A stretch of DNA of 64,000 nucleotides from Myxococcota bacterium (GCA_041288095.1 JBGGMJ010000211.1:32001-96000), one strand, 5' to 3'; shown: positions 1,051 to 64,000, counted from the first letter of the stretch. Numbers and translations are program-made. The notes: generated by a model not told the origin, from the sequence alone.

Positions 1051-1066
1051 GCTCGGCCGGCCTCGC

Positions 1067-2608: not shown

Positions 2609-2758
2609 GGGAATGGCGCTGCACACCGCGTACCACAGTGTGTGCTATCGCCTACCGTCGAAGACCCTCGAAATCATTGAGGGCGCCCACACCCGCCGGC
2701 GAGCGACATGTTGTCAGTGCTCACCACTTTCGCGGACAAACGACGTGCGCGCTCCCCA

Positions 2759-3157
2759 CTACCCGCGCCGGCTATCGACGCTCCAGATACCCGCTCCCCT
2801 GCACGCGATGTACAGGAAGATGAAGCAGAGCAGCAGCGCCGACAATCCCTGATTCGTGGTCGGGAAGAACTGGCTATTGAACTGGAACTTCCAGTGGAAC
2901 TGGATGTACGCGACCGCCATCTCACCGCTGCAGATGAACGCGGCGATGACGGTGAACAGCCCGATCATGACGAGCAGCCCGCCGATGACCTCGATGCAGC
3001 CGCCGAACCACATCTGCGAACCAACCTCCGCCACCGGGTACGACGGCATGAGGGGCACGAGCTTCGGAAGACCGGCGGTGACGAAGCAGAGGCCCGAGAC
3101 GATGCGCAGCACCGCGTACGCCTTGGCTTCGTGCGGCGAGAGGATTTTACCGAGCAT
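2759..3157 (-). CDS. DoxX family membrane protein
   Basis: 132 aa with 4 hydrophobic segments; LRIVSG, GLFT..AAFICSGEMAVAY and GAGIWSVD motifs. Confidence 0.85.
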   Translation of the reverse strand: MLGKILSPHEAKAYAVLRIVSGLCFVTAGLPKLVPLMPSYPVAEVGSQMWFGGCIEVIGGLLVMIGLFTVIAAFICSGEMAVAYIQFHWKFQFNSQFFPTTNQGLSALLLCFIFLYIACRGAGIWSVDSRRG

Positions 3158-3174
3158 GTCTTTTCTCCGGGTCC

Positions 3175-4047
3175 TTAGGTCTTTACGAGCTCGTCATAAG
3201 CCTCGGGACGGCGGTCCCTGAAGAATTGCCAGGTCTGACGGACTTCGTTGATCAGGTCGAGGTCGAGGTCGGCGACGATGACTTCGTCCTTGTCCTCGCT
3301 GCCCTCGGCCAAGATCTGACCGCGCGGGTTCACGAAGTAGCTGTGGCCGTAGAACTTACCGATGTTCCAGGGAGCCTCGGTACCGACGCGATTGATGGCG
3401 CCGACGTAGTAGCCGTTCGCCACCGCGTGTGCCGGCTGCTCGATCTTCCACAGGTACTGCGAGAGCCCGGCCACGGTCGCGGACGGATTGAAGACGATCT
3501 CGGCGCCGTTGAGTCCGAGGCAGCGCGCGCCCTCGGGGAAGTGTCTGTCATAGCAGATGTAGACGCCGATGGTCGCGTACTTGGTCTTGAAGACCGGATA
3601 GCCTCCGTCGCCGGGCTTGAAGAAGAACTTCTCCCAGAAGCCGCTGGTCTGCGGGATGTGCTGCTTGCGGTATTTGCCGAGATACTTGCCGTCGGCGTCG
3701 ATGACCGCCGCGGTGTTGTAGTAGACGCCGCGAATGTCCTCTTCGTAGATCGGCACGACGATGACCATGTCGTGCTTCTTGGCGAGGCCCTGCATGATCT
3801 CGGTCGTCGGACCCGGGCACTTCTCGGCTGCCGCGTACCAGCGCTTGTCCTGACTCGGGCAGAAGTACGGTCCGTTGAAGATCTCTTGCAGGCAGAGGAT
3901 CTTCACGCCCTTCTTCGCCGCCTCTTCGATCAGCGGGATGTGCTTGTCGAGCATCGCCTTCTGAATCTCGGCGACAGGCTTCGACTCGTCGTTGATCGGG
4001 TTTCCGCACTGAATGAGACCGCAACGCACGACCGACGTCTTGGACAT
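3175..4047 (-). CDS. Nitrilase-family carbon-nitrogen hydrolase, likely beta-ureidopropionase
   Basis: E-K-C triad motifs LQEIF, YRKQHIP and ICYDRHFPE; adjacent to NCS1 transporter and near dihydropyrimidinase. Confidence 0.85.
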   Translation of the reverse strand: MSKTSVVRCGLIQCGNPINDESKPVAEIQKAMLDKHIPLIEEAAKKGVKILCLQEIFNGPYFCPSQDKRWYAAAEKCPGPTTEIMQGLAKKHDMVIVVPIYEEDIRGVYYNTAAVIDADGKYLGKYRKQHIPQTSGFWEKFFFKPGDGGYPVFKTKYATIGVYICYDRHFPEGARCLGLNGAEIVFNPSATVAGLSQYLWKIEQPAHAVANGYYVGAINRVGTEAPWNIGKFYGHSYFVNPRGQILAEGSEDKDEVIVADLDLDLINEVRQTWQFFRDRRPEAYDELVKT

Positions 4048-4066
4048 GAGGGGCTCCGGAATTCGA

Positions 4067-5617
4067 TTAGGGGGCCGTAGCTACCTGGGGCCGCCCTAGG
4101 TTGTAAAGTCCGCGTTTGCCAGCGTAGTAGACCGCGCCGGCCAGCAGGAACCCGGTGAACCAGGCGTAGACGTAGAGGCCGTCCCAGAAGGCCGGCACGC
4201 TCTCGACGGCATGGGTGCTGTGCAGGAAGCCCGGCACGTTGGGCACCACGCCAATGACTAGCGCCGCGATGGCGAGCCAGCTCACGCCGCGATAGCGGCC
4301 GGTCGTGCGGTAGAGATCGGGAACGTCGAGCTCGGTCTTTCGCAGCAACCAGTAGTCGACCACCATGATGCCGGCGATGGGCCCGAGCAGCGCCGAGTAG
4401 CCGATGAGCCAGTTGAAGATGTACGCATCAGCGGACGCGAGCAGCTTCCAGGGCAACATGAGGATGCCGAGGATGCCGGTGATCAACCCGCCCGTCTTGA
4501 ACGAGATGTGACGCGGCGCGAGGTTCGCGAAGTCGTTCGCCGGGCTCACCACGTTGGCGGCGATGTTCACGGACACCGTCGCGATGGCGACGCCGAGCAA
4601 GGCGATGATGGCGACGACGATGCGCACACCGGGGCTCGCGATGACCTGACTCGAGGGGCTCGTGAGCTGCGCCAGCAAGTGAATGGGGTCCCAGAGCTTG
4701 CTCACGTCGGTGCCGGCGAGAATTACCTGCGAGGCGCTGGTGATGACGACGCCCATGGCCGAGAAGGCAATCATCGTCGTCGGGAGCCCCAAGGCTTGCC
4801 CGAGCATCTGCTCGCGTTGGCCTTTGCCGAAGCGCGTGAAGTCGGGAATGTTGAGCGACAAGGTCGCCCAGAAACCAACCATGCCGGTGAGCGACGGCAC
4901 GAAGACCTTCCAGAATTCGCCGAGGGTCGCGAACTTCGAATCCTGGCTGAAGATCGGCCCGAGTCCGCCGGCGCGGACGAGCACCCACGCGAGCAGCATC
5001 GCCGCGAGCACGAGGACGATGGGCGCCGCCCAGTTCTCGAAGACGCGCACGGCGTTCATGCCCTTGTAGATGATCCAGATGTTGAGCGCCCAGAAGATGG
5101 CGAACGTGATAGCGGACGGAAGCGTCAGCCCTAGAACCTGGGCGCCGCCGCCGAGCTCGCCGTAGGCGGGCCAGAGCGATTCGAGGAAGGTGCGAACGGC
5201 CTCGCCGCCAATGTACGTCTGAATACCGAACCAGCCGCAGGCGACAATGGCGCGCAGCACGGCGGCGACGTTGGCGCCGATGGTGCCGAACGAGGCCCGC
5301 GCCAGCACCGGAAACGGGATGCCGTATTTGGTGCCCGGGTGCGCGTTCAAGAGGATGGGCGCGAGGACGACGAGGTTCCCTAGCGCGATGGTGAAGAGCG
5401 CTTGCCACCAGTTCATGCCGACCGCGATGAGGCCGCCGGCCATCATGTAGGTCGGGATGCAGTGTGCCATCGAGATCCAGAGGGCCGCGAAGTTGTAGGT
5501 CGTCCAGGTGCGGCGGGACGGCGGCGTTGGAGCCAGATCGGCGTTGAACAGCGGACTGTTCGCGACGTCCGGAGGGAGCATCGCGAGGACTTCTTGAGTG
5601 AGCTGGGCGTCGTGCAC
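4067..5617 (-). CDS. NCS1 family nucleobase:cation symporter (pyrimidine/hydantoin permease)
   Basis: NADLAPT, GTKYGIPFPVLARASFG, WFGIQ, NIPDFTRF and NIAANVVSP motifs; about 12 TM segments. Confidence 0.92.
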   Translation of the reverse strand: MHDAQLTQEVLAMLPPDVANSPLFNADLAPTPPSRRTWTTYNFAALWISMAHCIPTYMMAGGLIAVGMNWWQALFTIALGNLVVLAPILLNAHPGTKYGIPFPVLARASFGTIGANVAAVLRAIVACGWFGIQTYIGGEAVRTFLESLWPAYGELGGGAQVLGLTLPSAITFAIFWALNIWIIYKGMNAVRVFENWAAPIVLVLAAMLLAWVLVRAGGLGPIFSQDSKFATLGEFWKVFVPSLTGMVGFWATLSLNIPDFTRFGKGQREQMLGQALGLPTTMIAFSAMGVVITSASQVILAGTDVSKLWDPIHLLAQLTSPSSQVIASPGVRIVVAIIALLGVAIATVSVNIAANVVSPANDFANLAPRHISFKTGGLITGILGILMLPWKLLASADAYIFNWLIGYSALLGPIAGIMVVDYWLLRKTELDVPDLYRTTGRYRGVSWLAIAALVIGVVPNVPGFLHSTHAVESVPAFWDGLYVYAWFTGFLLAGAVYYAGKRGLYNLGRPQVATAP

Positions 5618-5649
5618 GCGCGGCTTTTAGCGTTGTGACGCGGCAATCC

Positions 5650-5676
5650 GCAACTGCGGTCTGTCGCGACCGATAC
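5650..5676 (+). promoter_or_regulatory. Putative sigma-28-like promoter (GCAAC-N14-ACCGATAC)
   Basis: Matches the motif shared by six other intergenic sites; ends 11 nt before ATG 5688. Confidence 0.6.
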
Positions 5677-5687
5677 ACGAGGCCAGC

Positions 5688-6125
5688 ATGGGCACAGTCG
5701 TGAGTTTCGTACGGGGTATCGAGGCCAGGGCCGAAGACGTCAGCCGGCGCGGCAAGCTCAACGCGGCGACCGTCACGTTGGACAGCGGCGCCGTCGTAGC
5801 GCAGCGCGCCACGGCCATCCGACCGCATGAGCATCGCCATATCGAGCTCATGGACCGCTACGGGGCAGTGACCAACGACGCGGACGTGAGCGGCGTTCCC
5901 CTGCGCGCCGCGCACGATGCTTGGCTTGCTTGCCGGGCGGCGCTGGTGGCCGTCGGCGTCGAAGCCGCGGGTGTCGTCAGCTATGCCGGCGAGTACGGTG
6001 ATTGCCGCAAGCTTGCCGTGACCGTCGACCAGCGGCTGGTCGGTCCCTTCTCGATCCTCGACGGCACGCAGCCGCGCGACAGAGGCGCCATCGAAGCCGA
6101 CTTGCGGCGACTGCTAGCGCACTAG
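5688..6125 (+). CDS. Hypothetical protein (145 aa)
   Basis: Fills the gap between two minus-strand genes; GAGG upstream; preceded by the shared promoter motif; no recognisable domain. Confidence 0.55.
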   Translation: MGTVVSFVRGIEARAEDVSRRGKLNAATVTLDSGAVVAQRATAIRPHEHRHIELMDRYGAVTNDADVSGVPLRAAHDAWLACRAALVAVGVEAAGVVSYAGEYGDCRKLAVTVDQRLVGPFSILDGTQPRDRGAIEADLRRLLAH

Positions 6126-50328: not shown

Positions 50329-51442
50329 CTACTCGAGCTCTTTCTGATCGGTCGCTGTCTTACCCAGCAGATACGACTCGATGAAGCCATCGAGGTCGCC
50401 GTCGAGGACAGCGTCGGTGTTGCCCGCTTCGTGTCCGGTGCGATGATCCTTCACGAGACGATACGGCTGCAGAACGTACGAACGGATCTGCGAGCCCCAC
50501 TCGATCTTCTTGCGGTCACCGGCGAGCTTCTCGCGCTCTTCATCGCGCTTGCGCAGCTCGAGCTCGAAGAGCTTGGCGCGCAGCATCTTCATCGCCTTGG
50601 CGCGGTTCTTGTGCTGGCTACGCTCCGCCTGACAGGCGACGACGATGCCGGTGGGCATGTGCGTCAGGCGGATGGCCGACTCCGTCTTGTTGACGTGCTG
50701 ACCGCCCGCTCCGCTCGAGCGGTAGGTATCGACACGCAGATCTTCGTCGCGGATCTCCACCTGCACGTCGTCGTCGATCTCGGGCGCTGTCGCGACCGAG
50801 GCAAACGAGGTGTGACGACGCTTGGCCGAGTCGTAGGGGCTGATGCGCACCAAGCGGTGCACTCCCTGCTCCGCCTTCAGATACCCATAGGCGTACGGGC
50901 CGGTGATCTCGAGCGAGGCGCTCTTGATGCCGGCTTCTTCGCCGTGCTGGATGTCGAGCACCTCGACCTTGAAGTCGTGCTGCTCGGCCCAGCGGCTGAG
51001 CATGCGCATGAGCATCTGCGCCCAATCCTGGCTCTCGGTGCCGCCGGCTCCGGCGTTGATCGAGAGGAGCGCGTTGTTCTTGTCGTATTCGCCACCGAGC
51101 ATGCGCTGCAGCTCGAACTGCTCGATGGTCTTCTTCGCCGTGCCGATGTTGTTGTCGACCTCGGCGGCAATCTCGGCGTCCTGGTCGGCGAGCTCGAGCA
51201 AGCCGTCGGCGTCCGAGATCAGCTTTCCCACGTAGCGGAACTGCTGCACGACGCGCTCGAGCCGCGTGCGTTCTTGCTGGAGCTTGGCGGCGGCCTGGGC
51301 GTCTTGCCAGAGGGCGGGGTCACCCGAGCGTTCTTCTATCTCGACGAGCTGTCTCTCCAAGCCGGCGATGTCAAAGATGCCTCCGCAGCAAGGAGACTCG
51401 GTCTTGGAGCTGCGTGAGGAGTGGCTTGCGGTCGTCGCTCAT
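50329..51442 (-). CDS. prfB: Peptide chain release factor 2 (programmed +1 frameshift)
   Basis: GAGGTESQDW, HRLVRISPY, GAGGQHVN and WGSQIRSY motifs; 23-codon first frame from ATG 51442 ends in CTT-TGA-C. Confidence 0.97.
51370..51384 (-). promoter_or_regulatory. prfB frameshift site (internal SD plus CTT TGA C)
   Basis: Minus strand reads GGAGG-CAT-CTT-TGA-C; +1 shift gives GAC ATC GCC GGC TTG, in frame with the main ORF. Confidence 0.95.
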
Positions 51443-51476: not shown

Positions 51477-54089
51477 TCAACCGCTCTGCGCGACTCGGTC
51501 GGCGATAGTCTTGGCGAACTGGTGCACGTTCGCCATCGTGCTCATCGAGAGGACCTCATTGGCGTAGAAAATCCCGCCCTCGCCTTGGAGGTTTCGGGCG
51601 CGCTCGAAGAACTTCTCCATGCGCATGGCGTCGCCGTCGACATGAGGGAAGAACTTCCAGCGTCGGGCTTCGACGAGCTCGACCGAGGTAGCTCCGAGCT
51701 TCTCCATGTCGCCACGGATCTTGGCTACGACATCGGCGTCGCTGAGCTGCTCCGGCGCAAAGAGGTGGAAGATGCAGAGGTCGTCGTCGGGGTAGCGCTT
51801 GATCCACGCCATCGGGTGACCGGCGCGGTCCTCGCGCATGTTTTCGCGCAGGTACCCGACTTCGGCGCGCCCGTCGGCAACGCCCCGCACGCGGCAGGCG
51901 AAGGTGCTGTACGGCATGTGCTTGACCAGGCCGAAGAGCTGCTGCTGTTCGGGTGGCGCGTCGATGAATTCGAGCGACTGCTTGAGGTCGCAAGCGACGA
52001 CGACGCGATCGAAGTGTTGCTTGCCGGCGGCGGTGTGCACGATGGCGGTGCCGTCATCGCGCGACTCCAGGCGCCGCACCGGGGTCGACAGCTTGACGTC
52101 GAGGTCCTTGGCGACGCCTTCCCAGATGGGAGTCGTGCCGTGCTTCCACATGAGGAGCTCGCCGCTGCCGGCGCCGACGATGGTCTGCGGCCCGAGCATG
52201 CGCATGCCGAACACCGACGGTGTGTCGCCGGGGAAACCGTAGCCGTAACCAGTCAGATAGGTATCGAGCGCCGGCGCGAAGGCTTCGAAACCCTGGCGTG
52301 AGGCTACGATGCCGAGCGGCTCGGCGAGGTCTTCGTGGGGCACTTCGAGGCCGTCGCCGGCCTGATTACGAGCCTTGAAGTTCGTGACCATGTAGCGCAG
52401 CGCGCCGGCGTAGAACGCGGCCGTCTCCGAGAACGTGCGCGGTGGTCGGGCTTTGCCGGTCGAGAGGTCGTACTGCACCTGCTGCGGAAAGCTCGTGGTG
52501 TGCACGCCGTGCTCTAGGCCCAGCGCCACGATCCCGTCGTACATGCGTGGCACGCCCATGGTTGCGCCCATGTCGTGCTCGCGTCCGTTGAAGCGGACGG
52601 TGAAGCTCTTGCCTCCGACGCGGTCGTCGGCCTCGAGAACCGTGACGTTGGCGTAGCCCTGGCTGCGCAGATCGTGCGCAACCGAGAGGCCCGAAGGACC
52701 GGCGCCGACCACGCAGATCGCTGCGTTCTTCGCGAGCGGCTCGTCGCGTGGGGGTCGTGGCTTCGCGGCGGCATCGACCGCCTGGGTGTGCGCCTCGACC
52801 TCGTCGACACAGGCGCGGATCGCCGCCACCTGCTCGGGCGTCGCACGCAGGGCGTCGAGCTTGGCGCGGCTCGGCATCTCGCGCACCGGCTTGACGCTCG
52901 CGTCCGGTCCGCCTTTGCGGAAAACGAACTGGTCGACGTTCATGTGTCCGCTGCGGAAGCCACCGGCGATGCCCAGCAGATACATGTCCTGCATGCGCTT
53001 GAATCGGTCGTTGTAGCGCTCGCCGCGCAGCTCGGGCCAGGCGGCTTCGAAGTTCGCATGCCAGGCGAGCAACGTCTTGTCGTAGCTGTCGGTGATGCGC
53101 TGTACGTCCTCGGCCGCCCCGAACCAGTCCGCCGCCGCGGTGTCGATCTGCTCGCGCGAGGGACACAGACCGTCGCGGAAGATGTACTCGCCCATCCAGG
53201 CGTTGCAGCGCACCTTGCTCTTGGGCTCGAGGATGGCTTGCAGAGCGAAGCTGCCGCCGGGCTTCAGGCACGCCTGGGCGCATTCGAAGTAGCCGCGGAA
53301 GTTCTTGGGACCGACCGCTTCGATCATCTCGATGGAGACCACGTGATCGAAGTGGTCCTTGGGGAAGCGCTTCGCGAGGTCGCGATAGTCGCTGTAGATG
53401 AACGACACGCCGCCGATGTCCTTCGAGAGCGCGCGGGCGAGCTTGAGCTGCTCGTTCGAGATGGTGATGCCGACGACCTCGGCGCCGTAGTGCTTGGCGG
53501 CGTAGCGGGCAAAGCCGCCGAAGCCGCAGCCGATGTCGAGGACGCGGTCACCGGGCTTCAACCCCATCTTACGACACAAGAGATCGTGCTTGGCGTTCTG
53601 CGCGTCCTCGAGGGTGTAGCCGTCGGCATAGACGCCGCTGGTGTACGCCAGGGTCGGCCCGAGCATGCGCGCGTAGAGGGGGTTGCCAACGTCGTAGTGT
53701 TCCTTGGCGACGTTGGTCGAGCGCGTGATGGTCTGGCGGTTGAAGAAGATGGCGAGGGCGTCGCGGTAGAGGTGGCGTGCCGCGGCCTCGGCGAGGAGCA
53801 ACGGCGTCCGCGTGATCACGTCGGCCGTGAACAGGCGCTCCTTGGCCTTGATGGCGGTGAGCCGCGCGGTCAGCTCGTCGAGCGACTTACAGTCCCAGAG
53901 GCCGTCCATGTATGTGACGCCGAGCTGCATGTCCGGGTCACGGAGGACCCGGGCGTAGAAGCTCGGGTCGTGGACGGTGACGTCCTGAGGTGCGTTGCCG
54001 CCGATGCGGACGCCGGCAGCGGCCAGGAGCTCGGTGACGGTGCGTTGTGCGGGCGAAATAGCGCCCTTACCGACGTGTCCGTTGCTCAT
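51477..54089 (-). CDS. Fusion: cyclopropane-fatty-acyl synthase-type methyltransferase plus FAD-dependent (PUFA isomerase-like) domain
   Basis: N-half HYDVGN, VLDIGCGFGG, VSIEMIEAVG, YDKTLLAW; C-half VVGAGPSG, LEADDRVGGK, DMGATMGVP; one uninterrupted ORF. Confidence 0.85.
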   Translation of the reverse strand: MSNGHVGKGAISPAQRTVTELLAAAGVRIGGNAPQDVTVHDPSFYARVLRDPDMQLGVTYMDGLWDCKSLDELTARLTAIKAKERLFTADVITRTPLLLAEAAARHLYRDALAIFFNRQTITRSTNVAKEHYDVGNPLYARMLGPTLAYTSGVYADGYTLEDAQNAKHDLLCRKMGLKPGDRVLDIGCGFGGFARYAAKHYGAEVVGITISNEQLKLARALSKDIGGVSFIYSDYRDLAKRFPKDHFDHVVSIEMIEAVGPKNFRGYFECAQACLKPGGSFALQAILEPKSKVRCNAWMGEYIFRDGLCPSREQIDTAAADWFGAAEDVQRITDSYDKTLLAWHANFEAAWPELRGERYNDRFKRMQDMYLLGIAGGFRSGHMNVDQFVFRKGGPDASVKPVREMPSRAKLDALRATPEQVAAIRACVDEVEAHTQAVDAAAKPRPPRDEPLAKNAAICVVGAGPSGLSVAHDLRSQGYANVTVLEADDRVGGKSFTVRFNGREHDMGATMGVPRMYDGIVALGLEHGVHTTSFPQQVQYDLSTGKARPPRTFSETAAFYAGALRYMVTNFKARNQAGDGLEVPHEDLAEPLGIVASRQGFEAFAPALDTYLTGYGYGFPGDTPSVFGMRMLGPQTIVGAGSGELLMWKHGTTPIWEGVAKDLDVKLSTPVRRLESRDDGTAIVHTAAGKQHFDRVVVACDLKQSLEFIDAPPEQQQLFGLVKHMPYSTFACRVRGVADGRAEVGYLRENMREDRAGHPMAWIKRYPDDDLCIFHLFAPEQLSDADVVAKIRGDMEKLGATSVELVEARRWKFFPHVDGDAMRMEKFFERARNLQGEGGIFYANEVLSMSTMANVHQFAKTIADRVAQSG

Positions 54090-54098
54090 GGTCCTAGT

Positions 54099-54126
54099 TT
54101 TTCGGCAACCCACCCGCCGGCGGTGC
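54099..54126 (-). promoter_or_regulatory. Putative sigma-28-like promoter (GCACC-N15-GCCGAAAA)
   Basis: Shared motif ending 9 nt before ATG 54089. Confidence 0.6.
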
Positions 54127-54165: not shown

Positions 54166-55080
54166 ATGGTCGTCTTGGTCGCTATCGAGCGAAATTCCCC
54201 CGTTCAGACCGCCGGATCGCCGCCGCCAGGGCCCGAAAGCGCCATTCTGGCACCGACCAAGGCCGCGCCCGCCGCGCTCCCTGATCTGCCCAAGCGCCCG
54301 GAATCGTGGGGCCCGTTCCTCTACAAGGAGGACCGTCTGCCCACCGCCGTGGTCGCGGCGGGGGTCGCCCTATCGCTCGCGCCCTTCCTGGTGCCGATGA
54401 GCGCCGGGACCATCGCCTGTCTCCTGCCGGTCGCTCTGGCGGCGCGGGTCATGGCCCCGGTGCATCAGCACCACCACGCCCACCTCAAGGTCTTCACCAA
54501 CCGCTGGCTCAACAAGCTCTACGACACCGTGCTCATGCTCGGCGGCGGTAACGTCACGACCGGATGGGAGATGCAGCACTGCCGCGGCCATCACACCCAG
54601 TATCTCGACCACGAGAAGGACGTCGCCGGGTCCATGCGCTTCACGAAGAGTGGTCCGTTCCGGCGGATCATCTACACGGTGCTGGGTGATGCGAGCTCGC
54701 TGCGCGATGCCTGGAAGATCGCCGGCCAGAGCCGCGACCCCGGCAAAGTCCGCCGCCGGCTCGCCGGCGAGGTCGCCCTGCAGGTCGCGGTGAACGGTGC
54801 GCTGCTCGCCATCAATCCGCCCCTGGCGCTTGCGACCATCATCCTGCCCAACGTGCTCCTGCGCTGGATGGTCTTCTGGAAGTCATTCGACCAGCACGAC
54901 GCCGCGCCGGGCAACGATGTTTACGACGGCTCGGTGAACGTCTCGGGGCGCATCCAGGAGCTCTTCCTGAACGTCGGCCACCACACGGCGCATCACAAGA
55001 AGCCGACACTCCACTGGTCACGGCTGCCGGAGCTGACCGACCAGATCAAAGACAAGATCCCCACGGTGCTCATGCGCTAG
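54166..55080 (+). CDS. Membrane fatty acid desaturase family protein
   Basis: Three His boxes HQHHHAH, HCRGHH and HHTAHH plus hydrophobic segments; real start may be TTG 54175. Confidence 0.88.
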   Translation: MVVLVAIERNSPVQTAGSPPPGPESAILAPTKAAPAALPDLPKRPESWGPFLYKEDRLPTAVVAAGVALSLAPFLVPMSAGTIACLLPVALAARVMAPVHQHHHAHLKVFTNRWLNKLYDTVLMLGGGNVTTGWEMQHCRGHHTQYLDHEKDVAGSMRFTKSGPFRRIIYTVLGDASSLRDAWKIAGQSRDPGKVRRRLAGEVALQVAVNGALLAINPPLALATIILPNVLLRWMVFWKSFDQHDAAPGNDVYDGSVNVSGRIQELFLNVGHHTAHHKKPTLHWSRLPELTDQIKDKIPTVLMR

Positions 55081-56636: not shown

Positions 56637-58409
56637 ATGAAAGGTACCTCTTCGATGCTACTCGCTTGCTTGCGTGGGCGTGCTTGTCGCGGTGGATTCT
56701 TGATAGCGGCGTTGACGGTGGCGGGATGTGACGGTGACGACGGGCGCAATGGCCGCGATGGCGTTGACGGCGTCGACGGCACCAACGGCACGCCTGGCCA
56801 GGACGGCAGCGCCGGTTCGAGCTGCACGACTTCACAGAACGCGGCCGGCGATACCGTCATCAGTTGCACCGACGGCACCAGCGTCACCATCGACGCCAGC
56901 GGCAACGTCGTACCGCCGCCGCCCGTGGGTCTCGATCACCAGGCACAACAGCTGGTGCTGTCGGTCGACGTTCAGGCCGCTTACAACGGCACGACCATGT
57001 TCTGGCGCACGCGCTTCAAAGGTAACGAGGGCAAGTACCAAGACTATTATCACTTCACGGGCGGTCGCTGGACGCTCGAAGGCCGCTCGCGGCGCGACAC
57101 GGCGGCCAGCCTGCGCAACCCCACCGATCCGCGCCAAGGGGACATCGACCCCGCGGTCGCCAATACGCATGAGTCGCGGATCGCGCTCATGTTCCATGAC
57201 CCGGCGAACCCCAAGGTCCAGCACTTCGAGAAGTACGGCTGCTTCATGACCTGCCATGACCGTCTGCGGCAGATGCCGCGCTGGACCAGCTCCGATGGCG
57301 ACCGCACCAAATACATTCGCTTCGATGACTCGGCGAATTGGTGGGACAAGCCGGTGGAAGCGAGCATCACGGTCGCGGGCACGCCGGTGCTCGACCTCTG
57401 GCATTGGCGGGCGCACCGCGGCCATTTGATTGGCGCCGCCGACGACCAGACGGTGACCGCTGTCCGCGAGGCCGACAATGCGACGTCCGCGACGGCGGGC
57501 GCCGGCCGCAAGAGCGATGCGGGCACGGCCGTCGTAAGCACGCAGAACCGCGTCGATGGCGGCGCCGGCACGTGCGTGGGGAGCGGCACTCAGCTCTGCA
57601 CCGAGTTCGTCCTCGATCCGCTGACGACCGGCGGCAAGTTCGTCTTCAAGTGGGAAGACTTCTTCAGAACGCCCTCGTTCTACATGACCACCGAAGCGGA
57701 TGCGCAGACCGGGCCGCTGGCGCCGAATCCGACGCGTCTCGCCTGGGCTCAGGCGGTTGCCGGCGGCTACACGCCGAGTGAAGGCGACACCGTTCCCCGC
57801 CGCATCCTGCGCGCCGGCTCGGGCAGCGCCGCCGACATCAAGGACACCGGCACCACCTTCACGCGCCTGTCGCAATACGACGACTATGGCTTGTGGGACG
57901 TGCGCATGAGCCGCGCCTTGACCACCGCCAACGCCGACGACGTCGACTTCACCGACGGCAACACGTACCACGTCGGCATCTCGTCGCATCTCTGGGAGTA
58001 CGGCGGTCGCGACCACTATGCATCGCTCCCCTACTCGGTCGAGCTCACGGGCGCGGACCCCAGCGGCTCTGTCGCCGACATCAAAGCGGTACTCTTCGTG
58101 GGTACGACGCCCGATTGGGCGACCGTGCCGACGTTCCGTGCTTACCTCGTGCAGCCGGGCATCATGTCCTGGGACTTCCTCGTCGGCAATCTCACCGCGG
58201 CGACGTACAACGACCCGCTCACGGGCGACCCCGTCGACAACACACACGAAGGGGCCGACGAAATGCGGGCAGCGACGCACACGTGCGCCGATTGCCACAC
58301 GGTGACCGAGGCGCAAGACCGCGCCACGCCGAGCACGGGCGGTTCGCTGGAGAAGACCATGCCGCAGCGCAAAGGCATCTTCTCCCTGACGCCGTTGCCG
58401 CCACTGTAA
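56637..58409 (+). CDS. Lipoprotein cytochrome c with ethylbenzene-dehydrogenase-gamma/DOMON-like domain and collagen-like stalk
   Basis: VAGC lipobox, G-X-Y repeats, AAYNG..MFW, ESRIALMF, CFMTCH, LDLWHWRAHR and CADCH; start may be 56655. Confidence 0.72.
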   Translation: MKGTSSMLLACLRGRACRGGFLIAALTVAGCDGDDGRNGRDGVDGVDGTNGTPGQDGSAGSSCTTSQNAAGDTVISCTDGTSVTIDASGNVVPPPPVGLDHQAQQLVLSVDVQAAYNGTTMFWRTRFKGNEGKYQDYYHFTGGRWTLEGRSRRDTAASLRNPTDPRQGDIDPAVANTHESRIALMFHDPANPKVQHFEKYGCFMTCHDRLRQMPRWTSSDGDRTKYIRFDDSANWWDKPVEASITVAGTPVLDLWHWRAHRGHLIGAADDQTVTAVREADNATSATAGAGRKSDAGTAVVSTQNRVDGGAGTCVGSGTQLCTEFVLDPLTTGGKFVFKWEDFFRTPSFYMTTEADAQTGPLAPNPTRLAWAQAVAGGYTPSEGDTVPRRILRAGSGSAADIKDTGTTFTRLSQYDDYGLWDVRMSRALTTANADDVDFTDGNTYHVGISSHLWEYGGRDHYASLPYSVELTGADPSGSVADIKAVLFVGTTPDWATVPTFRAYLVQPGIMSWDFLVGNLTAATYNDPLTGDPVDNTHEGADEMRAATHTCADCHTVTEAQDRATPSTGGSLEKTMPQRKGIFSLTPLPPL

Positions 58410-58415
58410 GCGACG

Positions 58416-58781
58416 CTAGGCGCCGAGGACCTTTTTGATGCCGGCGAGCAAGGCGTCGGGCTTGTACGGCTTGACGATCCAGGCCGTCGCGCCGGCGGCC
58501 TTACCCCGCTGAGCCGACTCCATGGCCGCGTCGGTGGTGAGGACGAAGATCGGCGTCTTGGCGTGCGCGGGGATCTGACGCACCTGACGGATCATCTCGA
58601 GGCCGTCCATCATGGGCATGTTCATGTCGACGATGATGAGATCGATGGCGCTGCGTTGCGCGAGGGTCACGCCGCCGATGCCGTCTTGAGCCTCGACGAC
58701 ACCGAAGCCGCGGCCCTCCAGAAAAACGCGTAGCTGTTGGCGTACGGTCGCAGAGTCGTCGACCACCATGATCTGTTTCAT
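58416..58781 (-). CDS. Single-domain response regulator, CheY-like
   Basis: VVDDS, DMNMPMMDG, LTT and GATAWIVKP motifs. Confidence 0.92.
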   Translation of the reverse strand: MKQIMVVDDSATVRQQLRVFLEGRGFGVVEAQDGIGGVTLAQRSAIDLIIVDMNMPMMDGLEMIRQVRQIPAHAKTPIFVLTTDAAMESAQRGKAAGATAWIVKPYKPDALLAGIKKVLGA

Positions 58782-58788
58782 GAGCTCC

Positions 58789-59886
58789 TCAGGGGCATGA
58801 CACGAGGTTGGCGATCCATTCGCGAATGACATCGGCCGAGGGGTCCAACGTAAACGAGCCCAGCGGCGGCATCGTCGTCTCCAGCGGATCGGGCACTTCG
58901 GCGATCTCGTGCACCGTCGTCCAGAGCGGAGAGCCGTTCGGGTTGCGTGGTGTCACCTTGCTGCAAATCGCCGAATCGAGGAGCGACGTATCCCAGCGCA
59001 TGTCGAGCACACTCGATACCACGGAGCCGCCCGGTTGATGGCAGTGCGCGCAATTGATGTGCAGATAACTGCGCATGCGCTCGTAGGTAGGCACGGCACT
59101 ATCGGTGCTCGAAACCAGCGCGGGCAGCGTCGCTATCGCGGACTCCTCCGGCGGCGTGGTGAACAGGCCTATGTGCCCAATGGCGCGGATCTGGTTGTCG
59201 ACCACGCCCGCGTAGTCGAAGTCCATGTTCATGGTCGGCGTGTGGAGGCCAATCACGGAGCCGGCCTCCGCGGGATGGCACCGCAAGCAGTTGACGCGCG
59301 AGGGGAACAGATGCCGATGCGTCCCGGCCGGTAGATCGTAGGAGCCGACCTCTTGCGTCGCGAGCAGATCGGCATCGCTGCCGTCTTCACGCCAGCGATA
59401 GGTGTAGCCCCGCCAACGGTCAGGGTCGCGCAGGAAAAAGCGTGTCTCGAGCAGCCGTGCGCTGGTGTCGTCGCCGGGCACGACGTTGACGTAGAACTCC
59501 TTCATGATGATGGTGCCGACCGGCATGATCCACGCGCCCGTCGTCGTGAAGCCGATGGTCGTGCCCGCCGGGATCGCGAAGTAGCGCTTCTTGTGCTCGC
59601 CGTCGGTCCACAGATGGATGCGCAGGTCATACGGGACGAATTCGGCGGCCGGCGTGTGCGCCGCGAGGTTGGCGTAGCAGTTGGTCTGCGAAACCAGCGG
59701 CGAGAGTAATGGCGGTTGTCCCGGTACCGGCGTCTGCACGACGCAGCTCACGGTGTCGACCCGCGCGGTTAGGCCATAAGGCTTGGGGCCGTCGTCATGT
59801 GTGTCCTGGTCGGTGTCGCCACCACCACCCGGGGAAGGGCTGCAGGCGGCAAGCAAGAGGACCAACGGGCAACACCAACGCTTCAC
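58789..59886 (-). CDS. Diheme c-type cytochrome lipoprotein (SO2930-like)
   Basis: LAAC lipobox, PY....LWTDG..K.R, PVGTIIMKEF, ETR, CLRCH, RSYLHINCAHCH and MPPLG motifs. Confidence 0.82.
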   Translation of the reverse strand: MKRWCCPLVLLLAACSPSPGGGGDTDQDTHDDGPKPYGLTARVDTVSCVVQTPVPGQPPLLSPLVSQTNCYANLAAHTPAAEFVPYDLRIHLWTDGEHKKRYFAIPAGTTIGFTTTGAWIMPVGTIIMKEFYVNVVPGDDTSARLLETRFFLRDPDRWRGYTYRWREDGSDADLLATQEVGSYDLPAGTHRHLFPSRVNCLRCHPAEAGSVIGLHTPTMNMDFDYAGVVDNQIRAIGHIGLFTTPPEESAIATLPALVSSTDSAVPTYERMRSYLHINCAHCHQPGGSVVSSVLDMRWDTSLLDSAICSKVTPRNPNGSPLWTTVHEIAEVPDPLETTMPPLGSFTLDPSADVIREWIANLVSCP

Positions 59887-59956
59887 ACCATCTTTGTCGT
59901 CGTGCGGCGACTGTTGTGCAAGCTCGGCGAGCCGCATCGTGGTAATTTCAAGACAC

Positions 59957-60829
59957 GTGTCACTTCCGAAGCAGGCGGTGCTGATCGGGCCCGCGAACGA
60001 CGTTCGCAAGGCAGTCCAGGAGCGGCTGGCGGCGCTCGGGTTGCGGTGTGTCGTCGATGAAGGCGGCCGCGCCGAGAGCGTCCTCCGCACCACGCGACGG
60101 GTCGTCTTGGTGCTCATCGATGGCCGTAGCGCCATCGAGAATGTTGCCTGGGTGAAGTGGGCGAAAGACGCACATCCGCAAGCCGCAATCGCTTGGTTGC
60201 CGCCGGCGAAGAACGCTCCGGGAGAGTTGCGTGCGCTGGTCACCAAGGTCATCGACGAGACCCAACCGCAGCCCGTGCTCCGCGCCGCCGAGCTCACCCT
60301 CTCTTCCGCCCTCTTCCCACCCAAGCTCGTCGGAGTGTTGCGCGAGGCGGCCCAGGTAACGTTGCAGGAGCAGTTCAAGGTGACGCTGCCGCCAGCTCCG
60401 GCCGAGCTGCGTGGCGACTACGAGCCGCGTGACGAGGTCGCCGTCGCCGTCGCCTTCAACAGCGCGGCGCTGACTGGACATCTCACGCTGTTCGCTACCG
60501 CGGTCATGCTCGAAGAGCTGATGGTCGACGCCCATCGCACGCGCTCACCGGGTGAGGAGATCGCCGTCGAGCTCGCGAACCTCGTCGCCGGACACATGCG
60601 CAGCTTGTTGCTGCGCAGCCTCTCGGATTTCAGTTACAAAATCCCCGTGCGTTGGTCCGCCTCGAGCCGGGCGAGCATGGGGCCGCCGCCCGCGCTCGTG
60701 CTACCCGTGAGCCGCGGCACCCAGCGGCTCTGGCTCGAGCTGCGGCTCAATCACTTGGACGGGGAAGCGTTGAACCAGGTCAGCGAGCAAACGATTCTGC
60801 CAACGGGCTCTCTGAGCTTTCTCGAATGA
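59957..60829 (+). CDS. CheX-like domain protein with degenerate receiver-like N-terminus
   Basis: ELANLVAG (ExxN) motif preceded by G-containing beta strand; start approximate. Confidence 0.55.
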   Translation: MSLPKQAVLIGPANDVRKAVQERLAALGLRCVVDEGGRAESVLRTTRRVVLVLIDGRSAIENVAWVKWAKDAHPQAAIAWLPPAKNAPGELRALVTKVIDETQPQPVLRAAELTLSSALFPPKLVGVLREAAQVTLQEQFKVTLPPAPAELRGDYEPRDEVAVAVAFNSAALTGHLTLFATAVMLEELMVDAHRTRSPGEEIAVELANLVAGHMRSLLLRSLSDFSYKIPVRWSASSRASMGPPPALVLPVSRGTQRLWLELRLNHLDGEALNQVSEQTILPTGSLSFLE

Positions 60830-62079
60830 CCCGTTCCGGTCCTCTGCGTGTCGCGGGTCTGTTGCTGCTCGGTTCCACCCTCACGGGCAGCAAGTGCGTG
60901 AGCTACGACGAGCGGCTGACGGTGCCCAGCGATCCGAACAACGCCGGTGACGCCGACGGCGATGCCGACCCCGGCGACGGGACCGTGACGGAGTGCCTGC
61001 CGCCCGAGCCGGTTTACGACCTGAACGAGATGCGTCGCGCCGCCTGTGTCGGCCTGCGCTGCGCCTCACAGCGCGCCTCTGCATTCTGGTTCGACGCTTG
61101 GGAAGATCACGACGTCGTCCGTGTCGTCCGCTTTCGCGATGACGCTCCGGGGCCGCGCTTCGACGTCACCGACGAGCAAGGCGCGCCGTCGAGCCTCGCG
61201 TTCGTCCAGGGTACGCCGGTGACGCTGATCGTCCGCAACGAGGGTGATGCCGGGGTCAGCCGAGCTTATGACTTCACCGCGCCGCTCCTCTTCCACCACG
61301 TCGCCTGGCGCGACATCGCGACGAGCGACGGCACCTACGAAGCCGCGACCTTCGACGCGGTGTTGCCCGGCTACGCTAGTGGCCAGCGGCGCGAGGTCGT
61401 GATCGCGTTCGTCCCCATCGAGCGCGGCACCTTCGACGTCTACTCGTCGGGCGGCGTCGTCAACGGCACCGCCTATTCCGCTATCGCGTCCGGAACGGCG
61501 ACGCCTGATCTCGCGACCGGCGACGCGGGCCAGGGCATGAAGACGACGCTCACGATCACGGGCGATTCCCCGTTGACTCTGTTTCGGGGCAGCGACGTCG
61601 ACCGCGATGCGCGCCTCGACGACGATCCGCGCCGCGCCGCGAGCGACCCAGTATGGGACCCAGGCAACCTGCGCACGGTGACCATCGACGCGGTCGAGGC
61701 ACAGAACCCCGATACCGGCGGAGACATCTTCACCTTTCAGTGGAGCTCACTCGCCTTCCCGGTGAACGTCGCTCACGTGATCGAGCTGCACAGTGTCGCG
61801 GCCAACCGCTACCAGCACAACTTCACCGCCCTGGGTCTCATGCGTGGCTCGGTGAACCGCGGCGTCAGCGACAGCCAAACCGAGGTGCGCGCGGCTTCGT
61901 ACGACAGCATCAACATCGTCGCGGGCAAGACCATCCGCATCTACTTCGTGCCCACCGTCATCGCCCGCTACGAAGTTTTCTGCCAGCTGGGGATCGTCTT
62001 CAGCAGCAACGGTCAGCCCGACCTGCAATCGGGACACGCGGGCGCCGGCATGCACGATGTGGTCGAGGTCGTGCCGTGA
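60826..62079 (+). CDS. Exported protein with two cupredoxin-like domains
   Basis: C-terminal HNF...YEVFC...GHAGAGM type-1 Cu ligands; N-terminal repeat of the same pattern lacks His/Cys. Confidence 0.7.
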   Translation: MTRSGPLRVAGLLLLGSTLTGSKCVSYDERLTVPSDPNNAGDADGDADPGDGTVTECLPPEPVYDLNEMRRAACVGLRCASQRASAFWFDAWEDHDVVRVVRFRDDAPGPRFDVTDEQGAPSSLAFVQGTPVTLIVRNEGDAGVSRAYDFTAPLLFHHVAWRDIATSDGTYEAATFDAVLPGYASGQRREVVIAFVPIERGTFDVYSSGGVVNGTAYSAIASGTATPDLATGDAGQGMKTTLTITGDSPLTLFRGSDVDRDARLDDDPRRAASDPVWDPGNLRTVTIDAVEAQNPDTGGDIFTFQWSSLAFPVNVAHVIELHSVAANRYQHNFTALGLMRGSVNRGVSDSQTEVRAASYDSINIVAGKTIRIYFVPTVIARYEVFCQLGIVFSSNGQPDLQSGHAGAGMHDVVEVVP

Positions 62080-62891
62080 GAGCGATCTGGGTCGTCGTCG
62101 CGGGCCTCATGGTGTCCTCGGCGGCACGCGCGTATCCCCCGTATCGCCGGCTCGCCATGGTGCACTACGGGGCACCCGTGGGCTGCGAGCTATGCCACGC
62201 GCGCGCCGACAGCACCGAGCGCAGCGCCTACGGACGGGCGTGGCACGACAAGGGCGAAAACGAGAGCGCCTTCGGACCGCTCGAGGGGGGCGACCTCGAC
62301 GGCGACGGCACGCGCAACGTCGACGAGATTCGCGGCGGCTCCGACCCCAATGACCGGGAAAGCACGCCGTCGAGCCCGGGCAAATACGCCAAGCGGGCAC
62401 AGGTCACGCACATTCCCGTCGAGCAGCTCCAACTCGTGGCCGAGGCCGTCGAGCGTTACGACGTCGTCGAGCCCACCTTGAGTCCCGCCCAACTCGCGAA
62501 GCTCGAAGCAGGCCTCGGCCGCACCGCCACAGCGGACGAGAGATTGCCTACCCTTTATCTCGCGGTGCGCGGGGGCAAGCCCGACGAGGTGTTGGTCTTC
62601 AGCCACGCCGGCGCCGGCAAGCTCGAGGTGTCGCTGTTGCTCGCGATTGGCACCGACGGCAGAGCACGGCGCATCGCCCTCTATCGCGCTGGTGGCGATG
62701 ACGGCGCGCGTTTCCAAGCTTATCTGCGCTGTTTCAGCGGACGCGGAAAAGACGACATCGCGAGACGCGCCGCGCTCGAGTGCGCCGGCGCCTCCGCCAA
62801 GAACGCGACCGACAAACAGCTGAACGCGGTCATCGCGGAATCCGTGCGGGCGGCGCTATGGCTGGTGTTCACCGCCTTCGGAGCGAGCTGA
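62076..62891 (+). CDS. Exported monoheme cytochrome c-like protein with DxDxDG motif
   Basis: Signal peptide ARA-YP, CELCH, DLDGDG..N.DEI..GSDP; C-terminal domain uncertain. Confidence 0.65.
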   Translation: MRAIWVVVAGLMVSSAARAYPPYRRLAMVHYGAPVGCELCHARADSTERSAYGRAWHDKGENESAFGPLEGGDLDGDGTRNVDEIRGGSDPNDRESTPSSPGKYAKRAQVTHIPVEQLQLVAEAVERYDVVEPTLSPAQLAKLEAGLGRTATADERLPTLYLAVRGGKPDEVLVFSHAGAGKLEVSLLLAIGTDGRARRIALYRAGGDDGARFQAYLRCFSGRGKDDIARRAALECAGASAKNATDKQLNAVIAESVRAALWLVFTAFGAS

Positions 62892-62901
62892 TGGTGCGAC
62901 C

Positions 62902-63507
62902 TTGAACCCAGAAGGTCTCGACCTCAATCGGTACGCTCCTGTCGCGAGCGCCCCGCCACCGGCGAGCGTCGGCTGGGTCGTGGCGGCAATCGTCCTGTTC
63001 GTGCTGTTCATCGCGCTATCAGCGACATTGGCGGCGCGCTGGCTGCCGTCCGCTATCGAAGACGACGCCCTGCTCCCACGCGCGTCGCGTCCGGTGCGAC
63101 TGCTCGTGCTCGTTACCTTGGTCGCGCTCCTCGGGGTCCAAGCGCTCGGGGCCATCGACGTCTTCGTCCAGACGCGCATCGTCTACGACGACGCCGGGGC
63201 CTACTTCGCGCACCTGTCGCTGGGACGTCTCGTCGGCACCAGCCATGCGCACCTATTCGGCTACGCCTTGCTCTACGGCATGGTGGCGCTCTTTGCCTGC
63301 ATGAGCGCCGCGCCGCCGGCGTGGAAGCGCTGGCTGGTGGCGGCGTTGTGCTGGGCTGGCCCGTTCGACATCGCGTCGTGGTGGGGCATGAAGTATCTCA
63401 CCGCGCGCTTCGAGCTGCTGTCGCATGCCACCGCGCTGGCGAGCGTCGGCGCTAGTCTCGCGACTCTGCTGCTCGTCGCATCCGCCGTTCGCAAGGCGCC
63501 CGCGTGA
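62902..63507 (+). CDS. Membrane protein with SHAHLFG motif
   Basis: About 5 hydrophobic segments; in operon arrangement with flanking genes. Confidence 0.65.
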   Translation: MNPEGLDLNRYAPVASAPPPASVGWVVAAIVLFVLFIALSATLAARWLPSAIEDDALLPRASRPVRLLVLVTLVALLGVQALGAIDVFVQTRIVYDDAGAYFAHLSLGRLVGTSHAHLFGYALLYGMVALFACMSAAPPAWKRWLVAALCWAGPFDIASWWGMKYLTARFELLSHATALASVGASLATLLLVASAVRKAPA

Positions 63508-64000
63508 GCCGACAAACCACCAGCATTCGGCGGCGCCTGTTGCTCGCCGTTCTGCCGGTGATGACGGTGGCTCTGCTCGCGGCGCTGCTCGTCGCCACCG
63601 CCACCGCGCGGCGCGGCCTGTCATCGCTTTCGGATACGAACCTGACGCTCACCGCCGAAAGCCTGGCTGACGCCATCGGCCAGACCGTCGCGGACGCTTT
63701 GGCGGACACGGTGACCGCGGCGCGGCTCGATCTCGCTGCCGAAGCCGTCGAGACCGGTGACCCGAAGAACTTCGACTGGTACGCCGACGAGCTGGTGCTG
63801 GGGAAACGCAAGTACTCGGGGCTCGCGGTCGCCGACAACGCCGGCAAGGCGGTCGCGGCGAACGCCATCGACCGCACGGGCAAGCCCCTGACGCAGCTCA
63901 TTCGCGGCGGCGTCCTCGAGGCCGCGGTGGTCGGCCGGCTCGCGGGCGCGGGCAAAGACGCCTCGGCGGCGTTCGGCCCCGGCGAGGCAAGCGCGTTCGC
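63504..64000 (+). CDS. Membrane sensor (MCP or histidine kinase) N-terminus with Cache-like periplasmic domain, truncated by window end
   Basis: GTG 63504 opens a frame SIRRRLLLAVLPV-TM-long helix-YSGLAVADNAGKAVA, typical of dCache sensors; not in the ORF track because there is no stop in the window. Confidence 0.65.
   Translation, partial: MSRQTTSIRRRLLLAVLPVMTVALLAALLVATATARRGLSSLSDTNLTLTAESLADAIGQTVADALADTVTAARLDLAAEAVETGDPKNFDWYADELVLGKRKYSGLAVADNAGKAVAANAIDRTGKPLTQLIRGGVLEAAVVGRLAGAGKDASAAFGPGEASAF

Follow-up and report, generated by a model that had tools for sequence, protein, structure and literature searches.

The island described here lies at the end of a 64,000-nt stretch of a Myxococcota genome (GCA_041288095.1, JBGGMJ010000211.1:32001-96000); this whole stretch is called the window. 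The island encodes a Cyc2-like porin-cytochrome, further heme proteins, a cupredoxin and a chemotaxis-type kinase with its partners, and this gene set suggests that the cell senses reduced metals outside itself via electron flow. The window is region 32001-96000 of contig C211 (127.7 kb). The contig was also read beyond the window end (segment L003 = C211:86001-106000; window coordinate = L003 + 54000), and coordinates above 64000 are window-equivalents. The island covers 12.68 kb, from 56558 to 69241 (right end at C211 101241), in a region of 64-70% G+C, and its genes are named g1 to g11. It is rare, horizontally acquired and conserved as a set, and its parts are of known kinds.

Seven genes, g4 to g10, follow one another on the plus strand from 59957 to 67570 with 4-nt overlaps or gaps of at most 10 nt, g4 being the first. 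By this spacing they are one tightly packed predicted operon. An operon starting at 59957 had been proposed from the window alone by a model (the sequence-only reading), and it proves to continue well past the window end, where two further cytochromes (g9 and g11) and a second CheX-like gene (g10) are found. A scan of the island for promoters and terminators was uninformative: it gave 0 promoter-like sites where 1.0 would be expected, and 6 terminator-like sites where 5.9 would be.

The signalling core is g8 (63504-66161, +), whose N-terminus lies within the window and the rest beyond 64000. It encodes an 885-aa membrane kinase of the CheA type, with a dCache-like periplasmic domain followed by HAMP, PAS, Hpt and HATPase_c. 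Matches to Pfam and NCBIfam were judged against each model's own cut-off. The Hpt domain (Pfam E 1.3e-11) keeps the H-T-x-K-G site in 8/8 sequences, and the ATPase (HATPase_c, E 3e-19) is 40% identical to classical CheA over 195 residues. The best NCBIfam matches are CheA models (E 5e-59), at scores far below the whole-protein cut-offs. Alignment with a classical CheA from a related locus covers the Hpt site and the ATPase, starting at the end of P3; P3 itself (H-kinase_dim) gives no Pfam match at E ≤0.01. The P5 CheW-like domain gave no match in g8, which ends 6 residues after the ATPase. All six full-length orthologs likewise end after the ATPase, and two carry a second Hpt. In the orthologs P0110 and P0111 (genome G401; G401:C13:177410-180754; ~1115 aa), a second Hpt-like stretch lies between the first Hpt and the ATPase.

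Of the genome's six CheA-type ATPase matches, only that of g8 lacks a neighbouring CheW domain. The other five kinases are on contigs C74, C9, C71, C123 and C76, each of which has CheW matches. None of the genome's 13 CheW and 11 methyl-accepting chemotaxis protein (MCP) matches falls on the 127.7-kb contig. CheB and CheR were not found on the contig either, the last 20 kb (L004) having been searched for the MCP and CheW families only, and no adaptation enzymes were found with the relay. Lacking P5, as its orthologs do, and with no CheW or MCP on its contig, g8 is thus read as a CheA-type core working as a stand-alone membrane sensor kinase, which would not require these partners. The sequence-only reading had noticed a Cache-type sensor starting at 63504, had tied it to Che signalling and had expected MCP, CheA and CheW genes downstream. 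The gene is real and its kinship with Che signalling is confirmed, since the sensor is itself the CheA-type kinase; its match to dCache_1 is a weak one (E 6e-4), at 19.9 bits where the cut-off is 45, and neither MCP nor CheW occurs within 64000-74000 or on the contig.

Three candidate relay partners accompany the kinase. The single-domain response regulator g2 (58781-58416, −) begins 7 nt after the cytochrome gene g3 on the same strand. It matches Response_reg (E 7e-26), the receiver positions D-D, D-x-N-M-P, T and K are readable in its translation, and it scores 73 bits (E 2e-20) against the NCBIfam CheY model, below the cut-off of 189. Homologs of g2, at 45-50% identity, stand beside the module in three other loci (L019, L024 and L025). 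The two other partners, g4 (59957-60829, +; divergent from g3, with the starts 70 bp apart) and g10 (66602-67570, +), combine a REC-like half with a CheX-like half. The CheX match of g10 is above the Pfam cut-off (32.2 bits against 27). Although g4 has no Pfam match of its own, it aligns with three relatives that match CheX above the cut-off, namely its paralog g10 and two L019 homologs. In this four-protein alignment (A8), D55 of the REC-like half and E205, N208 and P230 of the CheX half are invariant. The CheX half thus carries E-x-x-N and, 22 residues on, a Pro, which we take to be the CheC/CheX/FliY phosphatase signature. Together, kinase, CheY and phosphatase would make a complete fast relay. 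Since a FliM match above cut-off is also present in the genome, CheY could have a flagellar target. The CheY-like regulator directly after a diheme cytochrome gene and the CheX-like protein had both been named from the window alone, and both assignments stand.

At the far end of the island, convergent with g10, lies g11 (69203-68022, −). In the part of the source used here (PMC8406198), Cyc2 is defined by a signal peptide, one CxxCH, the motif A-x-P-x-F-A-R-[Q/K]-[T/Y] upstream of the heme site, P-x-L four residues after CxxCH, a length of at least 365 aa and a 16-strand OprO/OprP-like porin; OprP and OprO are named there as structural homologs, and additional functions of Cyc2 are allowed for. 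The g11 protein has 393 aa, a leader and a single CxxCH (residues 34-38) that is invariant in 13/13 sequences. In g11 and its close relatives A-x-P-x-F-A-R-A-Y is followed, after three residues, by CxxCH. Compared with the published motif, A replaces Q/K and P-x-R (P-V-R) replaces P-x-L. Most of the g11 subfamily lacks the P of P-x-L, and the distant relatives P0105-P0107 of the same alignment fit the Cyc2 signature exactly, with P-K-L after CxxCH. The structural model of g11 (predicted local distance difference test, pLDDT, 71; low confidence in the N-terminal 90 residues) forms a barrel with some 16-17 strands, which among PDB entries matches OprP best (2o4v_A, E 2.5e-11, TMq 0.59); OprO (4rjw) ranks 30th.

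Because g11 shows all but two of the Cyc2 features, it is called Cyc2-like, a member of a divergent subfamily and not a proven iron oxidase. It shares with Mariprofundus Cyc2PV-1 and A. ferrooxidans Cyc2 the signal peptide, the N-terminal CxxCH, P-x-F-A-R-x-Y, a length above 365 aa and the OprP/OprO-like barrel; apart from the two substitutions, it differs from them in sitting by a sensor protein and not by respiratory genes. The wider Cyc2-like family is common in the phylum, as the profile of the alignment matches 96 of 400 other genomes, whereas the g11 subfamily (E 1e-100 or better) is found in only 7 of the 400.

Four operon genes encode further candidate parts of an electron-transfer chain. 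The monoheme cytochrome g9 (66163-66648, +) has, in its family alignment, an invariant CxxCH and an invariant Met-Met pair. The exported two-domain protein g5 (60826-62079, +) has no Pfam match, and a search of a collection of 5.8 billion proteins returned only two relatives. In its model (pLDDT 78) two beta-sandwich domains are seen. Domain 2 matches cupredoxin domains with Z 8-11.8 (4hcf_A: Z 10.4, root-mean-square deviation 1.4, 87 residues aligned), including A. ferrooxidans AcoP (Z 10.2, root-mean-square deviation 2.2, 111 aligned), nitrosocyanin and auracyanin; domain 1 scores Z 7.5. The residues H331 (followed by Asn), C386, H404 and M409 of domain 2 are invariant in 7/7 sequences, with the spacing C-x17-H-x4-M and an unusually long 17-residue Cys-His loop. 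Domain 2 is therefore, by fold and ligand set, a putative type-1 copper site. In domain 1, the Cys and one His are lost in this lineage and retained in three more distant copies.

The exported g6 protein (62076-62891, +) combines a signal peptide, a monoheme c domain, a Ca-binding TSP3-type repeat and an FMN_bind-like domain. Its CxxCH, the D-x-D-x-D-G of the repeat and C219 are invariant in 12/12 aligned relatives; the FMN_bind likeness comes from structural neighbours in the ESM Atlas (template modelling score, TM, 0.50-0.54) and serves as a lead only. Where testable, the heme motifs are beyond chance, since they are invariant across the family alignments of g11, g9 and g6. The membrane protein g7 (62902-63507, +) has an H-x-H pair, D156 and W160/W161 invariant in 21/21 sequences. 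It is probably a member of Pfam Aq_1264_TM (PF27139), judging from its ESM Atlas neighbours (feature score 0.95, TM 0.84 to clusters of that family); a literature search on aq_1264 found nothing. In two loci (L019 and L020) g6 and g7 are a single polypeptide. Among 92 family representatives 11 have a fused length (495-526 aa), and all six of those that were aligned are fusions. From the fusion order it follows that g6 is periplasmic and sits at the N-terminus of g7, and our own reading of the hydrophobic stretches, together with this order, would place the conserved His pair of g7 near the periplasmic face.

Two lipoproteins complete the island. At its left end, g1 (56637-58409, +) has a lipoprotein-type leader, an EB_dh (heme-b type) domain well above the Pfam cut-off (E 1.4e-27, 97.7 bits against 33.3) and one C-terminal CxxCH. 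On the other strand, g3 (59886-58789, −) encodes a diheme c-type cytochrome with a lipoprotein-type leader and two CxxCH. It scores 185.7 bits (E 1e-54) against TIGR03806, the model of the SO2930-family diheme cytochrome, whose cut-off is 313.3; by this score it is a relative of the family and not a member under the curated rule. In G401 a g3 homolog with 39% identity is found 5 kb upstream of the paired Cyc2-like and kinase genes, and the g3 matches in same-genus genomes are paralogous domains within proteins of 760-960 aa. Both genes were considered as core parts and rejected: g1 is in 0/15 loci and 0/3 same-genus genomes, and g3 is elsewhere found only in G401. These lipoprotein cytochromes are regarded as local extras. 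The sequence-only reading had been right about three exported heme-motif proteins (g1, g3 and g6, the last with a signal peptide, all with CxxCH), and its cupredoxin (g5) and His-motif membrane protein (g7) are likewise upheld by the fold and by the invariant residues.

The limits of the island are sharp. In a blastn comparison with the same-genus genome G002, homology ends at L003 2557 and resumes at L003 15242 (window 56557 and 69242), and the two flanking points in G002 are only 30 bp apart. These breakpoints place the left junction at 56557/56558 and define an insert containing exactly g1 to g11. In 3/3 same-genus genomes lnt directly adjoins the gene that here follows g11, and the island is missing from all three. 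Both junctions are bridged by contigs from two soil-metagenome DNA runs; because these may be the source sample, the bridging argues only against an assembly join. The DNA runs that contain the stretch carry a soil metagenome label and come from one single study. The island ends show no direct or inverted repeat longer than 7 nt, and the island proteins scanned have no integrase or transposase domains. No g5 or g7 was found among the 40 nearest genomes, no full-length g8 in any same-genus genome and no g1 in the three same-genus genomes.

Conservation is visible only in distant genomes, because the three nearest relatives lack the whole cluster. The expectation that the neighbourhood is conserved thus held for the distant genomes, where the core recurs, and failed for the closest ones. 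In 11 of 17 other loci examined, module genes stand beside a signalling protein, be it a CheA-like kinase, CheY, CheX, a classical Che cluster, a REC protein or a sensor-cyclase, so the link between cytochromes and signalling is not an accident of this genome. Four of the six loci without such a neighbour are on contigs of at most 5.5 kb; the other two (L055 and L056) are treated as a different use of g6-g7, as they are too distant and have no signalling genes.

The compositions of these loci illustrate how the set recurs. L052 (G095) reads g9, g6, g7, g11, g8, and L054 (G091) reads g11, g8, g9, g6, g7 with a di-heme peroxidase in front. Shorter sets are g7, g11, g8 in L057 (G114) and g7, g9, g8 in L022; g11 is directly upstream of g8 in L052, L054, L057 and L065. 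L020 has g5, g9, the fused g6-g7 and g11. CheY precedes g9, g6, g7 in L025, the g9-g6-g7 set is also beside CheY in L019, and in L024 g7 is followed by an MCP-domain protein and CheY. L053 (G083) has, on one strand, SCO1, a REC-DUF4388 protein and g7 and, on the other, g11, g6, g9 and two copies of g5. The first cluster of G401 comprises CheX, CheY, g5, CheX, g9 and fused g6-g7; the second, 22 kb away, comprises a g3-like diheme cytochrome, an RND pump, g11 and g8. In addition, a 79%-identical g8 and a 69%-identical g5 both list an ENA contig of 11,005 bp, so one contig probably carries these two homologs. A g8-type sensor occurs within 3.3 kb of a g11-subfamily gene in 5 of the 7 genomes carrying that subfamily, counts that are not independent because the genomes are kin, three of them in one family.

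The sensor keeps its neighbours while its output changes. In G008 and G016 a sensor that is 26-29% identical to g8 over ~380 residues ends in a HAMP-cyclase output and not in a kinase; it still stands beside Cyc2-like and g9-like genes, and g5, g6 and g7 are absent. In G228 the g8-type sensor is joined to a classical histidine kinase. A constant input domain with constant cytochrome neighbours and a variable output is what would be expected if the cytochromes were part of the input.

Several observations concern these loci in their own right. The set shared by two genera in L078 (G008:C5, 6830-12003) and L079 (G016:C432, 3302-9844) consists of a dCache-like/HAMP/adenylate-guanylate cyclase, a conserved 228-aa open reading frame (ORF) with a weak desulfoferrodoxin-like match, a Cyc2-like gene and a g9-like cytochrome. 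In L051 (G228:C243) the g9-g6-g7 set is followed, at 402-5944, by genes for a globin-PAS MCP, for CheB and for a full CheA that has two CheW-like stretches, one unassigned 190-aa ORF lying between the set and this cluster; here the heme/membrane module is linked to a classical oxygen-sensing chemotaxis cluster. Distant g6/g7 homologs in L056 (G120:C48, 10166-19989) and L055 (G116:C167, 507-10408) are accompanied by CusA/CzcA-family pumps and a CueO-like multicopper oxidase, and are adjoined in both by a common unassigned protein of ~480 aa (44% identity). A small exported protein is encoded near the module in L051 (6046-6618) and L053 (15403-15933), with 36% identity, and is absent from the island; blastp among unassigned neighbour ORFs revealed it as the only further shared gene.

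From this gene set we infer a direction and a substrate of electron flow, a contact between g8 and g9, a phosphate transfer to g2 and an output. In the reading that is tentatively preferred, and that comes close to an even call, the island encodes an electron-transfer chain across the envelope and a CheA-type kinase, independent of CheW, that reads the state of this chain and signals to CheY. At the outer membrane, g11, the fused monoheme cytochrome-porin, would accept electrons from an extracellular reductant. This reductant may be Fe(II), by analogy with Cyc2, and Cu(I) is kept open by the copper genes of the distant loci. In the periplasm, electrons would pass from g11 via g9 and g5 to g6-g7, where g6 (heme-c/FMN_bind-like) would dock on g7, the membrane protein with the putative periplasm-facing His-x-His site. 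The periplasmic domain of g8 would read the state of the chain, most likely through g9, and set the level of phosphorylated CheY by phosphorylating g2 in a CheW-independent phosphorelay, and the REC-like/CheX phosphatases g4 and g10 would reset the signal. The output could be control of the flagellar motor or, equally, of a non-motility kind. An electron-transfer chain feeding energy taxis had been suggested by the sequence-only reading: the exported redox set beside Che-type genes stands, and the redox input and the taxis output are presumed.

The contact on which this mechanism turns was modelled from the g8 periplasmic domain, g9 and heme, with alignments supplied by the author. The pair reached a median score of 0.34 against 0.00 for the best control, with partner pLDDT of at least 91 and agreement between runs in 100% of contacts. 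In a calibration made with no small molecule and with other alignments, 116 of 157 solved complexes attain the mark for a contact, as against 2 of 215 mismatched pairs; at scores of at most 0.60, 18 of the 157 solved complexes pass, as do both passing mismatches. The model thus lends weak support to the g8/g9 contact; it tips the balance slightly toward direct read-out and is no proof of it.

Several points weigh against the preferred reading. The genome is incomplete and fragmented (5.85 Mb, 212 contigs, 90% complete). The island is dispensable for the genus, given its absence from 3/3 same-genus genomes. The dCache matches fall short of the Pfam cut-off, g11 departs from the published Cyc2 motif at two places, and the g8/g9 complex score is a weak pass. 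In G401 the kinase is 22 kb away from the g5-g9-g6-g7 cluster, and in G083 no g8-type sensor was found with this query. The g9-g6-g7 set of G228 is placed by a Che cluster whose MCP shows only globin and PAS inputs; a direct read-out in the periplasm therefore cannot hold in every case. None of the annotated loci has a terminal oxidase or bc1 gene. Finally, the CusA-type pumps and CueO-like oxidase of the distant g6-g7 loci, together with SCO1 in L053, point to copper.

A bolder reading, doubtful though not far-fetched, is that g11, g9 and the heme-free dCache-like domain form an envelope-spanning 'electroreceptor' with electrons as its input. Its outputs would be modular, with a CheA-type kinase lacking CheW in the present island, an adenylate/guanylate cyclase in G008 and G016, and a classical histidine kinase in G228. 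The input would then be extracellular Fe(II) or redox potential, and not a bound ligand.

A separation of the two halves of the island is somewhat unlikely, and it is the strongest of the remaining explanations. Here the carriers would serve Fe(II) oxidation, lithotrophic or auxiliary, in a pathway accompanied by taxis regulators of its own. The kinase would bind an ordinary small ligand in the dCache-like pocket and no component of the chain, and the two halves would meet only at the level of behaviour, by holding the cell near its substrate. The combination of Cyc2, cupredoxin and cytochrome c mirrors the iron-oxidation chains of Cyc2 organisms, as far as these are covered in the part of PMC8406198 used here and by the AcoP match of g5. 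The periplasmic domain of g8 has neither Cys nor His, and the MCP beside the module in L051 has only globin and PAS inputs detected. Moreover, dCache domains usually bind small molecules. The annotated loci, however, include no oxidase, bc1 or carbon-fixation genes, and the sensor stays by Cyc2-like and g9-like genes even where its output is a cyclase and g5-g7 are missing. The g8/g9 contact prediction, weak pass as it is, also counts against a separation.

Less probable, and on balance unlikely, is a role in metal stress in the periplasm, be it for copper or for the mixed oxidation and handling of Cu(I) and Fe(II). In that case the metal would be oxidised or shuttled by the cupredoxin, the cytochromes and g6-g7, and the kinase would signal how much of it is present. 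Such a system would account for the CusA/CzcA-family pumps above cut-off in L055 and L056, the CueO-like multicopper oxidase in L056 and SCO1/SenC in L053, and it fits a g5 that is a probable copper protein by fold and ligands and a g7 with a predicted periplasm-facing H-x-H/D site. Those copper genes, however, are confined to distant loci (28-38% identity to g6/g7) and absent from the island, L052 and L054, and the pump of G401 scores as a multidrug type and not as CusA. We know of no copper system that includes a Cyc2-like porin-cytochrome or a CheY/CheX relay. A mosaic island, whose genes were merely placed side by side by transfer with no functional link, would explain the absence from 3/3 same-genus genomes, the variable gene order between loci and the lack of g1 in any other locus and of g3 in all but one, but is already disfavoured as very improbable, since the same gene families, differently ordered and fused, recur together in four or more families of the phylum and on unplaced metagenome contigs, and since stop and start codons overlap within the operon.

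Comparison with known systems shows partial likenesses. In the rus-operon chain of A. ferrooxidans, electrons pass through Cyc2, rusticyanin/AcoP, Cyc1 and an aa3 oxidase. The island resembles it in clustering an outer-membrane Cyc2-type protein, a cupredoxin and c-type cytochromes, and domain 2 of g5 superposes on AcoP. Unlike the rus operon, it has no oxidase and possesses g6-g7, a CheA-type kinase, CheY and CheX, and its cupredoxin has two domains and a 17-residue Cys-His loop. With classical CheA-CheW-MCP pathways it shares the Hpt site H-T-x-K-G, the 40%-identical ATPase, a CheY partner and CheX-type phosphatases; unlike classical CheA, g8 comes with a transmembrane sensor, HAMP and PAS of its own and lacks a CheW-like domain. 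Periplasmic heme-c sensor domains are found in the chemoreceptors GSU0582 and GSU0935 of Geobacter and DcrA of Desulfovibrio, and apocytochrome TorC acts on the TorS sensor. As in these systems, a c-type cytochrome would be the periplasmic input of a signalling protein in the proposed reading; in contrast to them, it is here a separate cytochrome beside a heme-free dCache-like sensor, with an outer-membrane porin-cytochrome in addition. In the Geobacter Esn system an MCP, CheW and CheA with a diguanylate cyclase are needed for growth on electrodes, so that a chemosensory-type pathway is likewise tied to extracellular electron transfer (PMC5585712). Esn differs in consisting of a cytoplasmic GAF-MCP, CheW and a full CheA, and the part of that source used here puts esnA outside the esnBC gene cluster and makes no mention of adjacency to cytochrome genes (PMC5585712). 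The arrangement seen here is not described in the portions of articles covered on Cyc2 with CheA, on CheA-like kinases that have a sensor and no P5/CheW, or on Cyc2 in Myxococcota (including PMC12442345).

The consequences would reach beyond this island. Cyc2 is the main marker for calling iron oxidisers from genomes; if a Cyc2 subfamily is wired to signalling, some 'iron-oxidiser' calls would be sensing systems. The proposed mechanism, if true, would answer how a cell detects a reductant outside itself, namely by passing its electrons inward to a carrier that is read by a kinase. With g8, CheA-type catalytic cores appear able to act as ordinary membrane sensor kinases without receptor arrays, and g6-g7 represents an uncharacterised heme/membrane module that occurs across phyla in fused or split form. 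Because every part is small and can be expressed, the model lends itself to direct tests.

The surroundings of the island add some minor features. On its right, at 72350-73576 (−; L003 18350-19576), it is flanked by a gene for a DUF4388 protein with an MshE-type cyclic-di-GMP-binding motif, 92-94% identical in the three same-genus genomes; in L053 a REC-DUF4388 protein is directly upstream of g7. On the left, an ORF at 50329-51360 (−) has a GGQ motif and starts without the usual N-terminal stretch. It presumably encodes a class-I release factor whose N-terminus is missing, as with the programmed frameshift of prfB. Closer to the island, 51477-54113 (−) encodes an 878-aa fusion of a cyclopropane-fatty-acid-synthase-type methyltransferase with a flavin amine-oxidase domain, and the adjoining gene at 54166-55080 (+) encodes a fatty-acid desaturase; by their look they are a lipid-modification pair unrelated to the island.

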